A stretch of DNA of 49,961 nucleotides, filler included, from Porpidia crustulata (Eukaryota), in assembly GCA_964255105.1 (NCBI GenBank). It is 2 parts of 2 records of this genome, joined end to end, with 100 filler letters (N's around TTAATTAATTAA, not from the genome) between each part and the next. Parts side by side here need not be neighbours in the genome. Positions count along the whole stretch, not along the records: positions 1 to 24,968 come from CAXUWE010000053.1; 1 more part is not named here. One strand, written 5' to 3'. Numbering within the stretch: the first letter of the stretch is position 1; each line of letters opens with the position of its first letter. A program made the translations under genes and the position numbers. Below are positions 11,295 through 25,068 of this stretch, one piece after another. The notes under the pieces are model-generated. The model had not been told where the DNA came from. It made no database searches and saw only the letters and a list, made by a program, of their open reading frames with translations.

Positions 11295-12867
11295 ATGACA
11301 ACCCGCCCGAGAACCCCCGGGCGGAGGCGGTCCACTGGCACCGTCTCCCCATCTGATGGCATCCCTCTCGACGTACTACGACAAGCCTTCGTTCACAACT
11401 CATCCTCCGAATCTTCACATCTCTCATCCTCACCAGAGTCGTCCTCTGCTACACCTCCTTCCTCGGCAGAACGTGCTGTAGCCGCGGAAACATGGCCCTC
11501 ACCAAACAACGCAGATTCCGCCATACCTGAAACCATATCATCCCGACCACCATCGACATCTCCTACAACAACAAGTCTCGCAGGAGTGGATGTACGGACT
11601 CCGAGCGATCAAGGCCGCTCAACCCAACATGGCGTTGGTCGGGAAACACAGACTTTGCAAGAGCAGGAGGCAGGGCCCGAGATGGACGCAAGAGGTGCAT
11701 GGTGGCTTTGTATTGGTAGATGGGTTTTCACTCGGAATTGGTTTCAATCTATGCTGGGAATATCTTCATTGGTAGTGACGATGCTATCGCTGTTCATCTA
11801 CGGGCTCAGATCCTACGAGATGGCCAAGTGGTCGGAGCGCAATGACCTGCTACAGATGTGTGCGGGCCTTATTCAGGTAGATCCCATGGCTTTTTGAAAG
11901 GATTCAACTTACTTATACATAAACAGGCCAATGTTTCTGGAGGTCCTAATTGCGAAAGGATTCTCCATGAAGGTCCGACCTTACCACCGTATTCCAAGAG
12001 GGCTATCGAGCACAGTAATAGGATGGCAGCTCACGCGACGACAAACAGCACGACGGCCTTGGCCAACCTTATCTTTCGACAAAACAGACTGCACAAATTT
12101 ACGTAGACTACGGCTTTGGTAGAATTGGCAATTGTTTGTTAGCAATACTCTCGGGTTTAGTCATCCTCGCAGGCCTTTTAGTATTCAATCGCTCCCGGCC
12201 AACCGGAGAACCGGTTTTCACAAGTCCAGCTCGATCGGGAGACACTGTAAGGGGGACGCGAGGCCCTCAAGGATCAAAAGCCATCACACCTGTGGGTCTA
12301 GCGCAGACTACAACACATAATCAACTGAAGAATCGGGGTTCGGAGCAAATGCGCCGGCGTCCGGTCCAAGACCGTGGTCAACCAGAAGAGGACATATCAA
12401 ACACTGAAAGAAGGCCGTCTCAAGGAACCAATTTCTGGAATGGTTCAGAAGATACGTTGATGGCTACTTGGACGGAATCGAGTAGCAGAAGAGTATCTAT
12501 GACTACTCCCTCTGACGACTTCAAAGTCCATGAGGGACTGATTGAGTTAGATCCAACCAAGCATACAAAGAATTACCTCGATCCCCAAACTGGAGTGTCC
12601 AACCATTCGTTGCCTTGGAAAAGCACCCATAGCGATGATGAAGATGACGGAACCCCTCAGATCCTCAAACCCCCGAAGGAGGGAACTGTGAAACGGGCAC
12701 TCGTGGGAATGAGTGTTGGTGGTGCTGCTTTGGCACCTGGAACTGCCATGAAAGATCAAATAGAGCGGACCTTGGAGACAAAGGAGCGCATTCCCCAGCA
12801 AGCGGGCGACTGCCTTGCTGGAGAGGTCACGAATGAATCTCCAACTTGCAAGCTGTCTCGCGCTTGA
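11295..12867 (+). CDS. Hypothetical membrane protein (S/P-rich N-terminus, 2 hydrophobic segments); possibly frameshifted
   Basis: ORF 11295-11876 joins a second exon through intron ~11877-11926 (GTAGAT...AAACAG). That frame stops at 12106, while the TM-containing ORF 12136-12867 is in another frame. Confidence 0.45.
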
Positions 12868-13382
12868 ATCATTACAATAATCACCGCAGCTTGATGCAGG
12901 TTGGTAATCTTCAATATTAGACCATTGCATGTGTTCCACTGTGGTACAAGAGTGCTCTTTAATGCTACCTATTCAATAATCCACTATAGATTGCGTTCAA
13001 CAGACCTGTGAGCGTGTACAAATGGCTATCCGGTCTGTTCTATTTCAAGAGCTGGCCGTTGCTTGCACTGTGTAATCGTCCAAGTATTATTCTCCATACT
13101 CAGAAGCGAAGTCGTATCTTTGACTATGTCGCACGAGTCATTCTGCTGCTACTTCTGAAAAGCTTGTGTGCGCGAAATCATCTCTTCCGCCGTCATGACT
13201 GACGGAGAAGACGAGTCAGTCGCCTAAGCAAAAGTTGAGGGTAGTGAGCATACCTGACACGATTTGCAGCCACGGCACGAGTGTTGCTGCCTTCTCACTA
13301 CTATTAGTATCGCACTACATAGATAGCGTATTGGGTCAAGAAGTCGGCTTACCTGAATAGCAATATCCCTGGCTGCCCGCGC

Positions 13383-13601
13383 TCATCGCCCATACATAGG
13401 TTCTCCTCGACGCTTCCACCTCCGTCCCACAATGACGAGGACGATTACCAGGGCTACGGTGACCACAACGGTAACTATAGGCACAGCGATCTTGACATCA
13501 AGACCGGGCGAGCCGTTGCCAGTGCTTCCGCCCCCGCTCCCACCCCCAGAGCCTGGCCCTCTTCGGCTCAGGTATCGCGTGGTCGTCATGGTTGTATTCA
13601 A
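13383..13601 (-). CDS. Small single-pass membrane protein (Gly/Ser linker, hydrophobic helix, basic cytosolic tail)
   Basis: GPGSGGGSGGGSTGNGSPG-LDVKIAVPIVTVVVTVALVIVLVIVG-RRWKRR is a typical TM segment followed by a positive-inside cluster. Confidence 0.5.
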   Translation of the reverse strand: MNTTMTTTRYLSRRGPGSGGGSGGGSTGNGSPGLDVKIAVPIVTVVVTVALVIVLVIVGRRWKRRGEPMYGR

Positions 13602-16363
13602 GTCGATGCCCGAGTAGTTGCAGACCTTGGAAGCTTAGAATAGATAACCAGTGAAGATTTTCGTTCACTGGGAAGAAGCCGAGGATGGGAGAGTCATGGT
13701 CAGGAACAGTATTTTGCGGTTGGAAGATGTTGAATGAAAGGAATTTTCAACTATAATGCTGGAAATGACCTGGATGTATAGTAAATCCTTCAATGCGGCA
13801 AAGCATGTTAGTACTCCTGGGATCTGCCCGGAAAGCCTCGCTTCGCCACGCTCGTTGCTACAGAGATGTGAAACACGGATGTTCCAACTAGTAATAACAA
13901 TAGGCTGAATCAAAGAGTATTACCCAGGGGTAATCAGACTTCAAGTTCAATTTTCAATACTGCGTCAACATTATTCTTGTGAATCTCAGCCAACTCGGTC
14001 ACCAGTCTCTGAACATCGCTTTGTTTAAACTATTCTTGTAACCAAGACTTGGATTTTGCATTAACACAAAAACGTGTCTAGGAACATGGAGCATGTGTTG
14101 TTAGATCTTTAACATTCTCCCGAATAGAAATAAGCAGAAATCATAATAAATCAAGACAACCATTGAACCTGCCGTCACATAGTACAGCTTTGCTCCCTTC
14201 TTGAAAGACACCCGTAACATCCACGAGTGCCAACATGAAATCGACGACGGCGAAGTCCGTCCTGGCCCCAAGTGTAAAGATACAACTCAAGCTCCAGACC
14301 GGTCGACAAAGCATTGGCAATACGGATTTTGTAAGGATATATACCGAGGATCGAAGTCAAGCATGACGGGAATGCCAAGTTGGATGGAAGGAAGTGTCCG
14401 AGATGGAGATACGATGCGCTTGTTATTTCCTTGTTCCCGGGAATTATTTTGCATGATTAAAAACGGGATTAGCAGAGGATATATCTGCTATAACGTAGCT
14501 CAAGGCACAAAGGGTTGGTTTGTGTTGCGACAACTTAGTATATCATCACAGCCAGACTCTACACTTCTATTGAACACCGTCTTTCTCATTAACAGTCTTG
14601 TGGCAATCCATAAAATTCCACAGACAAGAATAACTTCCACAAGAGACTCAACGGCAAGTCTAGCAGGAAAGTCACTAAAGTCATTCTATTCAACGCGATC
14701 AACTCCCCGGCCACAGCCTCTTTTCCATCGTGAAGTATCATGACCCGATCACGGTCTCCCAATTACATTCCCAAGCATGTAATTTCCACCCATGTTCCCG
14801 TTCAAATTTTGTCTGGTGGTGCCAGGCGGTGAGGGGACGCAAGCTTTGGGGTCCTGGGTCGCCGGCGTCTTGGATGGGAGCTTAGATTGTAGTCGGATAC
14901 AATGTCGTATAGCTGCACTAGACATTTCAATCGAGTGCCATGCTTCGTGTTTCTGATTAAGCTGGAAGCAGGAACGAAGCAAAGATACCTCTGTGCATCA
15001 CCGCATAGATGTCCATGAAGCTCACAAAGTGCCTGACATTTGACTCGCGCTTTGCGTAGACCAATGCGAGGAATCACACGCAGACCGGAAGCGAGGGATA
15101 TTCAGGCGATGATTTGGGCGGGGGGGTTGGCATTGTATATACTGTCGATAATAATTAAGTGGCTGCTAGATTATGGATGATTTGATGTCTTTGAGGCTCC
15201 GTTAGATCGAAAATTTTGGCGACAGTCTTTAGGTGAATGAAGGGCTGTCTCGGATGGTCTAGAGCCTAGATACGGTCAAGGTAATGAATATTGACGCTTC
15301 AAAGATAGACAGTGATGCATTTGACAACATCTAGAGATTTGATAGTCCATGGTTTCGAACCGTGGTGTTGAACATGACTTGACGATGAGATTACTCTGGC
15401 TTACCACTAGTGAACGTATTCTATCATACCACGGTCTCGGTGCACTGCTGCTTGACTGTTCGCAGTACTTTGTTCATGCAATATACTGTGGAAGCAGGAT
15501 AACAACTGCTACAGCTAACCCGCCTAGTCCTGTTGTAGATAGACGGCGAACATTACTTAGATAAGGGTCGGGTCTTATAATTAGAAGTGTTCGGAATGTT
15601 TCTTCAGGCAAAAGAATCCCGCTGAGCAATCCATTACTCTGAAAGGTCGTGGCCACATCGAATAGAACCCGTGATTCAAGAATCGCTTTATCCCAGGTAA
15701 GAGAACTTCGGCCAGACCTTTTTGTGATAAGTAGACATTCAGAGAAAATTAGAAGCGCCTGAGCTTTCAGCAAAGGAAGCTGACGGAAATAGAACCGCAG
15801 GAGAGATAGTATGCAAGGCAGCGGCGGTAAGAGCCGTTCCTGCAGCTTCGGCGAATGTCGCTAGCGTCAGATTGTATAGCAGAGGTACCGGCAATAGATG
15901 AGCATAGTGGGCAAAAACTATTGCCATGACGGTCTCAAAGTTCGTCACAAAGAGGAAGTTCAAGCTTTCAAATCTCTGAAAACGTTAAGGATGTCTGTCT
16001 CGTAGGCGCTATGCTTTGTGCTCACCTGCAGTGCACAAAGCTGTAAGACGAGTGAAGTACCACCCGAAAGCCCATATCTGCTCATAACGGTAGTCACGAG
16101 TCGCAGCTTTACTAGGTAAACATCCCTCTGTCTGACAAACGAAGGGTCACTAGGATTGTCGGACACCATCTCGGAATAGATATACACAATACTTATCATG
16201 ACCCGACTGAAGCTTGAACAGTGACCGATGTAGGTATCGTGTAGATCATGTAGGTATGGGGTCGGATAATCCTGGCGACCCTTTGTTTGCCAAACCAAGG
16301 GTTGGCCAAGCTGTTGACTCTACAGCCGTAGTACACTTCAACGATCGACCGAAACTTCTTCAT

Positions 16364-17424
16364 TCAAGTAACCCTTTGATTCCCTCGTCTAATTAGTTTC
16401 AATGGAACTCTTCGCGATTTCGACCTCTTGTTTCTCAACTCCTCCCCATTATCAAGATTACGCTTCGACTGTGGTCTTAGAGCGTTGGTTTCAATTTCCT
16501 GCAGAGGCATCTGTGGCGTGATAATTCTTTTTGGTTCCACTTGAAGTTCCAGTTCAATACCCTTAAATGTTGACAGTAAGGCCAGTAGCTGCCCAGATAC
16601 ATCAAGAAAATTGAACCATGGTGTTCGATGAATCATCATCTTGTCCGCAATGTCGGTCTTTCCATCAATAATTGACGCAATGTATGGTACTGTTGTAGTC
16701 ACATTGAGAACCTGGACCCAATGCGAGTATACTATCAAGAGGCGGAACTACACCGGATTAGCTTAGAGAAGAGCTATTGGTCACAAGAACTCACTTTTAT
16801 GGATCGCTTGTCGAGTAGTGTACGCTGTTTTGAAGCCATAGCAAGCACAGAATAGAGCTCCGCCGTGGTAAGCGAGAAGTCCGGTCGGCATCTCTCTCGT
16901 ATCAGAATAGCGGAGAATGGAATTGCCTTTGTGATATCGTGCGGGGATGTCGAGGTAGTATCCACAGAGCGATGGTACAGAATCAACTCTGTAAAGACAC
17001 CGAAGGAGTACGTATCGTTCTTGATGTGAAAGGTGTGATTTCTAGAGCCTTCGTATCAGTATCATGTATTCTAAAACGATTTGAAATGTGATGTTATTCA
17101 AAATGCTCACCGACGAATGTGTATTTTCTCTGCAGTCTGCCGTGACAGATCTGTAATCCATTCAATCAAGGCTGCCGCGACGTATTCTGAGCAGAACCGA
17201 GCAGTCTCTGCGTCGCGCAACACAAGGTTCATAAAGAACGTTGATAACCGGCCCTTCTCGTTCCCAATAATGTCACTCACAGGATGTATATTATCCCATG
17301 CAATGTCTTCATCGCTTTCAGTGACTTCGACATGTAAATGTTCTAGTTGCAGTTCACTCGGGGTAGAGGCTTTCGAGCGCTTCAGATCGCGAAGAAGACT
17401 GCGAACAGATGACTGCCACGACAT
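16364..17424 (-). CDS. Hypothetical 314-aa protein, 3 exons (17424-17111, 17041-16795, 16747-16364)
   Basis: Two canonical introns (GTGAGC..CTGAT..TAG; GTGAGT..GCTAAT..TAG) join three ORF pieces into a stop-free 945-nt frame. Basic C-terminal cluster RNKRSKSRR. Confidence 0.8.
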
Positions 17425-17560
17425 TCCGAGCCGCGCAAACTGATTAAAGGAATGTGGATGGTAATTAGAATGAGCTGTCAAGAACCATACTTGCATCTAG
17501 ATTGCTAGATGAGATGGACCAACTCTCAACACCGCTAACAGTTTCGGGAGTGAACACATA

Positions 17561-17570
17561 GTCACGTGAT
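17561..17570. promoter_or_regulatory. GTCACGTGAT E-box (Cbf1/SREBP-type bHLH site) in a 251-bp bidirectional promoter
   Basis: Palindromic TCACGTGA near the middle of the spacer between the two divergent ATGs (17424 and 17676). Confidence 0.4.
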
Positions 17571-17675
17571 ACCACTGACTTTAGATAATCTACTAAATAA
17601 GGTGCCAGTACTTCCTCACGTTGATCTTCATCTCTCCTTTCGAGCCTTGTTTATTTGAAATGCACATATCTCATC

Positions 17676-18911
17676 ATGTCTACCCCGAGCACTTTAGATG
17701 AATTCAACTCCATATTTCCATCATACCCAAACGACTCTCTATCCCGTAGAAAAGATCATATACCCTCCGGAAGTTCCTGGGACATTCGCGAGCTAGGCAC
17801 GTTCCAGATTCTTCGTACCCCCCCTACAAAGAAAATTCCCCCGGTATGGCTCCAGTCACACTTTGTGGAAGCAAAAGCTCGCGTGGAAGGAAGCAGACCT
17901 ATGCAGTCAGCCCTCCAGCTACTCCGCCAGCATTGGCGTAATATGAATCATGAGGAGCTTCATCAAGCTGCTGGGCCCTTTGCCTCTTTCGTTACGCTGC
18001 TATCACAGGTACTTGAGACTACCACTATCTCTGACCCTCGTCGCGAGCTGAGAGCACAAGCCCAAAATACTCCAACTGTCCTCCCCAGCACGGGCATCTC
18101 ACCCTCTCCAATGTCATCTTCTCCTCCAGAATTTCCCGATGAAATGGTCCGCAAAGATCGATCTTCGAGTAGCTACTCGCCCTCCGATGAGAGCGACCAG
18201 TCGAATTATGATCAGCGGGCGAAATCCGAAGCAACCACGAACGCCTGCATTTATGAGCTTTTGCGTTGCATTACCGAGGTATCCAGAAAAGAAAACGATT
18301 ATCCTTTCCGCCTGGAATGGACTATCACCCAAGATACCATAAGAGTTCATGCAGGATCGCACGAATATAGTACTACAAACGATGGCAGTTTCGTACATAA
18401 AGCTCATCGTCTGGGTTATTGGCAACGTGCTTCTGACTATTTATATTGCTCCATCGAGGTGTGTTCACTGCCAATCTTTCTTCGAATTCAATGCTAATAC
18501 ATCCCATCGTGCGAAGGCCAAGTCTTGGCACAATACCTTAGAAAAACCTCGCACTGTTCAAGCGCAAGAAGCTGCGCACTTAATTGCTATGTTTTCTCGA
18601 CATACGAATGCTGAACTTCATCTTCAGCACGATTTAGTGTAAGTTCCCTATAGCGATTTCCAGACAATACTGAATGAAACAGTGTACCACTGGTATCTGG
18701 CGCTCAAAGTCTTTTCTCATTAGTGCTTGGCAATTTCCCGAAGGAGTACGAGCAATATCTAAACGATGGCTCTCAATTAGGACAATTGGCATTTCCAAAG
18801 GTCGAGGAATGGGGCATGTTCAAGTTGCAGAACCCTGAAGAGTTGAAAATTGTGTTTACTATCATCGTTGCTCTTAACCTAAAGTTGCAAAGTCTCGGAC
18901 CGATGGATTGA
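17676..18911 (+). CDS. Hypothetical 377-aa protein with a PD-(D/E)XK-like nuclease motif, 3 exons (17676-18458, 18517-18638, 18683-18911)
   Basis: Introns 18459-18516 and 18639-18682 give a stop-free 1134-nt frame. The spliced protein has EATTN...TNDG...CSIE|AK...AQEAAHLIAM. The nuclease assignment is inferred from motif pattern only. Confidence 0.8.
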
Positions 18912-19239
18912 GGATCAAGGGTGTTCGAAACGTTTTTAAGAGACTCCGCCGAGCATGAGCAAACGTAATAGAGATAGAATAACTAGAATAACTTGACAAA
19001 TGATTTATGACCGAAGATATTAATGTTAAAACGAGGAAGAAAGAAATGAGGTCGGTGGTGCTAAATAGCAAAAAAGTTCGGGAAACGCACGTGGGAATGC
19101 ATACCTGCCAGCGCACGAAATGCGGGGCGCATTAACTGAGATAACGTTCTTGATTAATAAACATGACTAAAGTACTATTATTTCTACATCTTGCATCATG
19201 GTTTAAAAACTAATGTATCTATAAAAATTTCAATTTCAT

Positions 19240-19928
19240 CGCCGAAAACGGTTGATAGAACAACAGCGTCCTCGAAACGCACCTTATGCGCTGCGGAAGC
19301 TTGTTAACCTTTGCTTAGGCTTGTGCATACGAATACTCCGAGGAGCTTGATCTACTTACAGACTTGTAACCATGACGTGTGCTGAATCCCCAACAAGAGC
19401 AAGTCTCCCACTCGGATGCGTCCAGGTTTCGATCTCATTGGACTGAAGCAAGGACCACTTAGTACAATCTTGCGCCAAGCTCAATAGGGCCCCAAATCGA
19501 GAGTCCCAGTCCATGGGAACCTCGCACAGCTCCTGTTTTGTAGCTTTTTGGACACCGCACTGTACCTTGTCTTAAGGATCCTGAGGTTCTGTCAGGTCGA
19601 CATTCAGCAAGCCGTCATGCTTCATGACGTAAGAGACCGCATGTGAGCCAGGACCCATCCACAGATTGAGATTCCTTTGATCAACCCAATCGATTAGGTT
19701 GTCGTGATGCCGCACCTCACTTGCTAGTGTGGTAAATCGATAGACAAGATTGTCAGTACTGCCAAGGGGATCCTCTCGACTAAGCAGCTTGTCCCGACAA
19801 ATGGACCGCTCGCCATCGGCACCAAATATGATATCTACTTCATAGAATCCACCTGTCTGTAGTCGAATTGAAGGCTTGACAGTATCGACTCTCATGCTTG
19901 TAATGCTGACATTTAGTACTATCTGAAC
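19240..19928 (-). pseudogene. FAD-dependent monooxygenase (salicylate hydroxylase-like) pseudogene fragment
   Basis: DIIFGADGERS, LWMGPGSHAVSY, LVGDSAH and A*GA..FEDAVVL motifs. Stops at 19572-19574 and 19284-19286, plus a deletion. The N-terminal GxGxxG is absent. Confidence 0.88.
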
Positions 19929-20926
19929 TAGTGTGACCGTTGGTTTGGGTTTTACCCAACAAACCCAACCCATTTCGCATTAATGGGTGGGCTTGGAGGC
20001 CCCATAGGGCCACCCACCCAAGCACTATACAGAGACACAGAGCATTGAACACAAGAAGATCGTCAGCGCAGGAGTAACGCAGAGAGATCTTAGTCAGCTG
20101 AAGATCGCGGGTTTTTATCAGAGTTTTATTACATATCTGCTATGGACACATATATACTAGTATTGGGATCAAGTCTTCTGACTTGATATTTCGCCTTTTA
20201 GGTGGTGCAGTTGGGTATTGCGCCCGGCATGTGGATTGCGCCCGCCCTACCTAGCTTCCTTACCTAGGTAAACTAATACCCCTAGGTGGTCGTAGCACAT
20301 ATCTACACATTCCAAACTAAGAATTGCTATCGCTTTATTCGGTAAAGGAAACAAAATCGCTTGAATGGGAGCATCAGGAAAGCATATCGCTGCATCTATA
20401 ATTCTGTTCCCATGTTGAGGACAGGATTTTGAATATAGCGATATCTGCGTAGTCCGTAGTCACATGCTGAGGTAGAATTGACGCAATGCAGAGGCCGCCC
20501 TCGACTAAGGGCTTACAGGCTTACTTATACAGGGTCCTAGGCGCCCGGCTACGGCATGTCATACCCAAAGCCTTGCCAGTTGGGCCATTAAATGTTTCAA
20601 GAAAATGAGGCATTTTTGTAATCTGCCGTATGCGCATTGGGTGCATTGGATTTTATGACTTTCATCTACTGAACACCGGCCGTTCCACTTTTTCTCCCTA
20701 GCACTCCGTGGCATACATGATGAGGTTTACTGGATCTCGTGAGAGCGGTTTAAGCTGTGTTGAAAATATCAAGATGTCGACTGCCGACAACAACTGAAAT
20801 ATAAAAGACATACCGCAGCGGCGATGTCACTTGCCCGCAGCCTTCACAACCATATAGACGCGAGGATGACACCACAAAATGTTGAGTGAGTGCTGTTACT
20901 ACGCTCCTAGGAAACCAACCCTGATC

Positions 20927-24463: not shown

Positions 24464-24968
24464 CAACTTGGAGATAGTCTGAAATCGCCAGTCCTGATAG
24501 ATCCAGACCACATTTGATTAATTTAGAGATGTCAAGACTTTATATGTCAATTATCGCGATGTGTAAATTAATATAACCGAATTTTCAAATTTAACAAAAA
24601 AAGAAAGAGAAAAACCGAACGAATTTAAAAAAAAGAAAATTGTTGAACAGGCAGGGTGACTGTCGTAGTATTGCTACTGAATTACGTACAGAACTAGAAG
24701 GTTGAGTGGCCAGGTGGTCACATAAGACAGGGGTAGGGCAAAGCCCTATCACTAGATCCAATCCATCCATTTACACCGACTAGATAATGAGGAGGTTAGG
24801 CCTCGTCCTACCGCACTTTCCAACAGAATCGAATATTATCACAATTAATTCGTGTTCTCGAATAAACGATAAATTCGATGTTGAACAAGCTGTTAGCCCC
24901 AGATGGAAACCCTACCTGGAATAGGGACTACGCGGGCAAAGCGTAATAAGGATACCGCTCACCGTGCT

Positions 24969-25068
24969 NNNNNNNNNNNNNNNNNNNNNNNNNNNNNNNN
25001 NNNNNNNNNNNNTTAATTAATTAANNNNNNNNNNNNNNNNNNNNNNNNNNNNNNNNNNNNNNNNNNNN
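24969..25068. other. Artificial 100-nt contig-join spacer (N44-TTAATTAATTAA-N44)
   Basis: Symmetric N runs flank the six-frame stop linker TTAATTAATTAA at 25013-25024. Confidence 0.92.

Follow-up and report, generated by a model that had tools for sequence, protein, structure and literature searches.

To our knowledge, a fungal killer system either has a single gene for both toxin and antidote, as in Spok and wtf, or is made up of unrelated, non-nuclease proteins. The killer and resistance functions of Neurospora rfk-1/rsk, Schizosaccharomyces pombe tdk1 and the het loci are tightly linked, and none of these are nucleases. In the parts of the cited accounts that were available, such linkage is also described for S. 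pombe wtf (PMC12941216), while Spok of Podospora (FuSpok in Fusarium) has a PD-(D/E)XK nuclease as its predicted killer, gives HsdR-like matches, duplicates and spreads across species (PMC6660238), and has been placed in an accessory-chromosome model (PMC12693581). Likewise, Wolbachia CifB carries inactive restriction-endonuclease (REase) domains as well as active ones of the pattern E..D..ExK..Q (PMC11342252), and mL37/mL65 of the mitoribosome form a pseudo-dimer of repurposed endonucleases (PMC8998825). Here we describe a pair of genes, A and B, at positions 16364-18911 of a 49,961-base stretch of DNA (the window) from Porpidia crustulata (assembly GCA_964255105.1). The pair is an unnamed, conserved cassette of a predicted nuclease and pseudo-nuclease in Leotiomycete fungi, for which we infer a toxin-antidote function.

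An intact head-to-head gene pair under purifying selection

Positions 1-24968 of the window are the whole of contig C53 of the source genome, a fragmented 22.9-Mb fungal assembly, and hold the following features.

16364-17424, minus strand: gene B, exons 17424-17111, 17041-16795 and 16747-16364; putative antidote or inactive subunit
17425-17675, no strand: divergent intergenic region, likely a shared promoter, 251 bp between the ATGs
17562-17569, no strand: palindromic E-box TCACGTGA, 2 occurrences in the window
17676-18911, plus strand: gene A, exons 17676-18458, 18517-18638 and 18683-18911; predicted PD-(D/E)XK-fold nuclease, putative toxin or active subunit
18228-18570, plus strand: predicted catalytic residues of gene A, E185 (18228-30), D236 (18381-83), E261 (18456-58), K263 (18520-22) and Q278-E279 (18565-70)

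An exhaustive search over two GT-AG introns returned longest models of 377 amino acids (aa) for gene A and 314 aa for gene B, reproducing the original prediction of two three-exon genes of these sizes with ATGs 251 bp apart at a palindromic E-box. Annotated orthologues agree in length (377 aa for A in Cudoniella; 379 aa for A and 314 aa for B in Lachnellula), and the intron positions of both models were found again in related loci. Positions 13000-20216 are also covered by a second assembly with zero differences and flat depth, which is not independent because it probably comes from the same sample.

Both genes had been described as free of stops, and their openness is beyond chance: in neutral simulations the A and B frames were both still open in 1 of 2000 runs at 0.1 change per site and in 0 of 2000 at 0.15, and the synonymous distance of the pair to its nearest relatives is 0.27-0.35. 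Purifying selection acts on both genes, with ratios of nonsynonymous to synonymous change (dN/dS) for gene A of 0.31 (0.23-0.44) against related locus L003 and 0.20 (0.14-0.28) against L009, and for gene B of 0.56 (0.40-0.82) against L004 and, in exon 1, 0.25 (0.13-0.48) against L009.

The intergenic region measures 209-405 bp in the 9 related loci with both starts placed. Of 11 intergenic regions examined, 8 retain TCACGTG, those of the distant L014/L018 subfamily among them; 4 of the 8 are near-identical copies. The motif is missing from L015, L020 and L021, all of one subfamily. From this E-box region A and B would be co-expressed. The intergenic regions of L003 (5850-5880) and L006 (5840-5879) also contain a 10-bp tandem repeat of 3-4 copies, whose copy number differs between near-identical loci.

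A predicted nuclease and its inactive-looking twin

The predicted product of gene A is an active REase-fold nuclease. Its predicted structure contains the alpha-beta-beta-beta-alpha-beta core of the PD-(D/E)XK superfamily, and this structure together with its structural matches supports the nuclease fold proposed earlier for the plus-strand protein. The D-G...E-A-K...Q spacing noticed in the sequence was confirmed as part of a motif that reads E185, N235-D236-G237, E261-A-K263 and Q278-E279. The catalytic columns of the A alignment (A6) hold E in 33 of 33 rows, D in 33 of 33 and E in 32 of 32; among 17 long A proteins, E-x-K is direct in 11 and split by a retained intron in 4, with the segment missing from 1 and K changed to N in 1. 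Intron 1 of gene A separates the Glu from the x-Lys of this motif (18456-18522), so many database gene calls drop or split it, which may be why the family is unannotated.

Residues of about 120-180 in A form a disordered Ser/Pro linker with a basic cluster. The top 19-residue hydropathy is 1.5 and the N-terminus is polar, so a signal peptide is not evident. This bears on the idea of a Crinkler-type effector system in which A is released into hosts or competitors and B provides self-immunity. Crinkler toxin domains are often of the REase fold, as the available text of PMC5289972 describes, and to that extent A would fit; A is, however, a stand-alone REase fold, its model lacking the N-terminal header and the NTPase or kinase domain given there and having no Pfam match, and we regard this reading as highly improbable.

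The gene B protein is predicted to share the fold of A, with a PD-(D/E)XK core over aa 8-252. When its residues are mapped by the order of secondary-structure elements, the canonical ExK is absent, with L151 at the Glu position and R153 at the Lys position; an acid occupies that Glu position in 0 of 25 B rows and Arg the Lys position in 24 of 25. The description of the minus-strand gene as an inactive-looking partner is thereby supported, including the motifs quoted for it, the lack of E-x-K and the tail resembling a nuclear localization signal, which is disordered and basic (KRSKSRR at about 294-300). The location of the pair would be nuclear.

For both proteins the best structural match, over most of the folded length, is mL37/mL65 at 7-12% identity, which raises the question of whether A and B are housekeeping relatives of these mitoribosomal proteins with a structural, RNA-binding role. 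This is barely credible to us, given the low identity, the lack of a Pfam match to the mL37/mL65 families and the full catalytic motif in A; the frequent pseudogenization, paralogy and changing flanks of the pair are also unlike a ribosomal protein.

Linkage, co-divergence and decay among relatives

A first search found 35 relatives of gene A. For gene B, 3 and then 14 were found, and a B profile search gave 81 representatives at 50% clustering. All named relatives of either gene among those seen are Leotiomycetes. Linkage was assessed in 23 metagenome loci fetched with gene A, and B lies head-to-head with A in 15. A further five (L010, L013, L016, L017, L024) are without usable upstream DNA, and in the three that lack B (L019, L022, L023) A is broken or reduced to a 30-residue remnant, L022-L024 being identical to one another. 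Since nine of the 15 linked loci are 98-100% identical, the 15 represent about seven lineages. Accession numbers of A and B are consecutive (orientation not visible) in Lachnellula arida (TVY16550/TVY16549), Sclerotinia nivalis (KAJ8062400/KAJ8062399) and S. trifoliorum (CAD6442610/CAD6442611). Over the N-terminal parts of 11 pairs, two of them close, the identities of A and B rise and fall together (Spearman 0.83; p 0.0001 by permutation), and this co-divergence extends to B identities of 21-36%.

Homologues also occur in a multi-copy manner that is at odds with taxonomy. Cudoniella has four A genes, which are 49-56% identical to g1327 and fall into three or more subfamilies, and proteins of Pseudogymnoascus destructans and Bisporella are 95.5% identical as against 69.6% for two Sclerotinia proteins, a discordance that suggests transfer. 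One relative, BCIN_18g00180, lies on Botrytis chromosome 18. BCIN18 is described as an accessory chromosome present in seven further strains among those surveyed, in the part of the account available (bioRxiv 10.1101/2022.03.07.483234). The ESM Atlas matches an A orthologue, at scores of 0.96-0.97, to Ascomycota clusters without names that have 54-162 members, and A thus probably belongs to a wider unnamed family; leads for a B orthologue score below 0.9 and point to unnamed mollusc clusters. Head-to-head co-occurrence of homologues with a patchy distribution had been proposed as a check on the original prediction, and conserved head-to-head linkage and multi-copy, discordant occurrence were found; neither a missing nuclease-fold match nor unlinked homologues, which it had named as grounds for rejection, came true.

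Decay of the pair takes several forms. L004 has a frameshifted A beside an open B, and L005 has the same A frameshift plus one in B. In L020 AT-rich DNA cuts off A and the visible exon of B is open, L018 has both genes broken, L019 a broken A with B replaced, and L010 a frameshifted A with B outside the visible DNA. An intact A beside a broken B domain was seen in 0 of 23 loci, and independent one-sided losses of A number 2.

A possible toxin-antidote module or heterodimeric nuclease

We give about an even chance to the reading that A and B are a conserved two-gene cassette acting as a selfish toxin-antidote module. A would be a toxic nuclease acting on the nucleic acid of the fungus itself, and B, a dead twin of its fold, would bind and restrain it. 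The two would be produced from the shared promoter and, by analogy with mL37/mL65, would join as a pseudo-dimer. Any nucleus, spore or fused cell holding A without renewed B would die, and through this killing the cassette, or its chromosome, would stay in the population. Persistence could come from spore killing or from vegetative addiction, and the data fit both. A tentative reading, to which we give somewhat less than even chances, is a methylase-free addiction module akin to restriction-modification, in which a nuclease and its dead twin under one short promoter form a 2.6-kb unit that crosses species and orders and kills non-carrier spores or nuclei. The toxin-antidote or drive module put forward in the original prediction is supported in part, by fold, inactive-looking partner, linkage and multi-copy, taxonomy-discordant occurrence; membership of the Spok, Crinkler or HET families is unsupported.

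Heterodimeric nucleases of one active and one structural subunit include XPF-ERCC1 and Mus81-Eme1, and A and B might be an obligate pair of this kind. It would benefit its host, for instance by countering viruses, transposons or other foreign DNA or by serving in non-self recognition, and would be gained and lost like accessory defence genes. Linkage, co-divergence, the common fold and the likeness to the mL37/mL65 pseudo-dimer all fit this, as do selection that is purifying rather than positive and the HET, VWA, ankyrin and NACHT-type genes in several cassette neighbourhoods. Symmetric loss would be expected, yet both one-sided losses hit A first, a weak objection, and near-identical copies across orders, with several subfamilies in one genome, suit selfish spread somewhat better. 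Decay order and spread are perhaps the only observations that this reading leaves without an explanation. We judge a host-beneficial heterodimer unlikely, if worth serious attention.

A number of observations weigh against the toxin-antidote reading. An activating subunit would account just as well for the linkage, the co-divergence and the inactive twin. The two independent one-sided losses are weak evidence, as both would hit A by chance 1 time in 4 if either gene could go first. In L002, L003 and L011 A is intact and a frameshift alters the final 11-15 residues of the disordered B tail; single-base indels may also be assembly artefacts. Most named genomes yielded one partner: only A was retrieved from Cudoniella, Tricladium, Pseudogymnoascus and B. 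cinerea, and only B from Rhynchosporium, Calycina, Acephala, Venustampulla and Rutstroemia; in Leptodontidium 0119 the two are on separate contigs. The window's genome yielded one copy of the cassette and no further ones. Profile-profile comparison detected no similarity between A and B (probability <0.1%), and the residue mapping in B follows the order of secondary-structure elements. An acid stands at the Asp position in 17 of 22 B rows, and the Glu of the invariant E166-L-Y lies 13 residues beyond R153. Permuted sites of the Cfr10I/NgoMIV type have a similar Glu spacing, and B may retain some activity by way of such a site.

Flanks, neighbours and mobility

DNA likeness of the window to its relatives stops at 16305 and at about 18915-18926, and for the DNA on either side of the pair in the window tblastx found no match in any of the 23 loci. 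Among near-identical (98-100%) copies the shared stretch is as short as 2.9 kb, and flanks change about 280 bp past the B stop and 9 bp past the A stop. Breakpoints that hug the gene ends in this way, together with the unmatched flanks, would suit a small self-mobilizing element whose nuclease breaks DNA so that repair copies the pair to new sites, with B as regulator or helper. Such an element is improbable in our view: no terminal repeats, target duplication or empty site were found in the window, L003, L004 or L006, the two sides of the L004/L005 flanks do not rejoin into one gene, and the window's genome holds a single copy. Mixed flanks could also be chimeric metagenome assemblies, and the flanks are transposon-rich and unstable anyway.

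To the right of the cassette in L002-L005 (L003:7254 onward), a HET-domain gene starts mid-domain 9 bp past the A stop, and to the left in L003 and L006 a VWA-domain gene is represented by its 3' part. Both genes are oriented away from the cassette. In L004 the cassette sits inside a long inverted repeat (72-85%; L004:1213-1877 and 12510-13174, some 11 kb apart), which L005 does not share and which is probably two transposon copies. The 3' part of gene A in L006, L007, L008 and L012 has clustered G>A and C>T differences, without new stops, beside an AT-rich remnant resembling a long interspersed element (LINE), so labelled from reading its translation and without a Pfam match; the clusters are consistent with repeat-induced point mutation leaking into the gene. 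In the window itself, a further feature borders the pair.

16121-16304, no strand: degenerate fold-back element resembling a miniature inverted-repeat transposable element, 69% self-complementary over about 185 bp, outside the conserved unit

This element abuts the end of likeness at 16305 and has a second copy, 75-81% identical, on contig C1832. Nearby genes had been reported as disrupted, and in-frame stops were found in all three: a FAD monooxygenase remnant (about 19.3-20.0 kb, minus strand; Pfam E 0.008), a NACHT-type gene (about 20.9-24.5 kb, plus strand) and a P450 (about 7.4-8.7 kb, plus strand), the last lying about 8 kb left of the pair and so not adjacent. Short repeats found elsewhere in the source run occupy 20149-20298, 19921-20003 and 24638-24968, the first two interrupting or preceding the monooxygenase remnant; depth reaches several hundred at 20.2 kb and 24.7 kb and is near 11 for other copies of 19921-20003. 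Two runs of N at 24969-25068 join separate contigs, and the window's right half is another contig with long open frames of conserved-looking genes.

Comparison with known systems

A search of partial literature found no published account of such a pair or of its locus tags, and no relative of A or B was found in prokaryote and viral collections. Nor was there any match, by sequence or domain, to rfk-1/rsk, wtf, tdk1 or the het loci. HET, NACHT/NB-ARC or repeat domains gave no Pfam match in A or B, such domains occurring only in neighbours. The fungal PDDEXK_12 profile (PF20516) has no match in A or B and 4 elsewhere in the genome; contigs C1055, C2020 and C558 carry three unrelated nuclease-like genes of this family (L031-L033), and hhalign to the three gave probabilities <0.2%.

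The cassette would work in the manner of Spok, with which it would have in common an ascomycete setting, a PD-(D/E)XK predicted killer, HsdR-like matches, duplication, spread across species and accessory chromosomes. Spok, in contrast, is a single protein of about 700 aa whose kinase domain gives resistance, whereas here there are two genes of about 300-380 aa without kinase or cysteine cluster, and the partner itself has the nuclease fold; no second domain was found in the A or B models, and no Pfam kinase match in 16 and 12 family members. Wolbachia CinA/CinB (CifA/CifB) is a two-gene selfish module, as the cassette would be, but there a single chain holds the active and the inactive REase domains, the antidote CifA is separate and not described as a REase in the account available, and the genes form a bacterial operon; fold matches of A and B to CidB are faint (E 0.2-0.9). 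Type IIG enzymes (DrdV, BpuSI) and the HsdR N-terminal region differ in that A and B have no methyltransferase, specificity or helicase parts. In mL37/mL65 both partners are structural ribosomal proteins, whereas A keeps its catalytic motif and the pair is accessory.

If the toxin-antidote reading is correct, a two-gene arrangement whose antidote repeats the toxin's fold in dead form would be a new killer design, and the first candidate killer/antidote family found in Leotiomycetes within the literature searched. It would be a candidate keeper of Botrytis accessory chromosome 18, and a possible reason why accessory chromosomes and regions persist in these fungi. In the pair, the mL37/mL65 pseudo-dimer would also have a living counterpart that is still catalytically intact. 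Even as a host-beneficial heterodimer the pair would be an unnamed conserved nuclease that no Pfam family covers and, among those found here, the nearest look-alike of mL37/mL65 with its catalytic motif intact.
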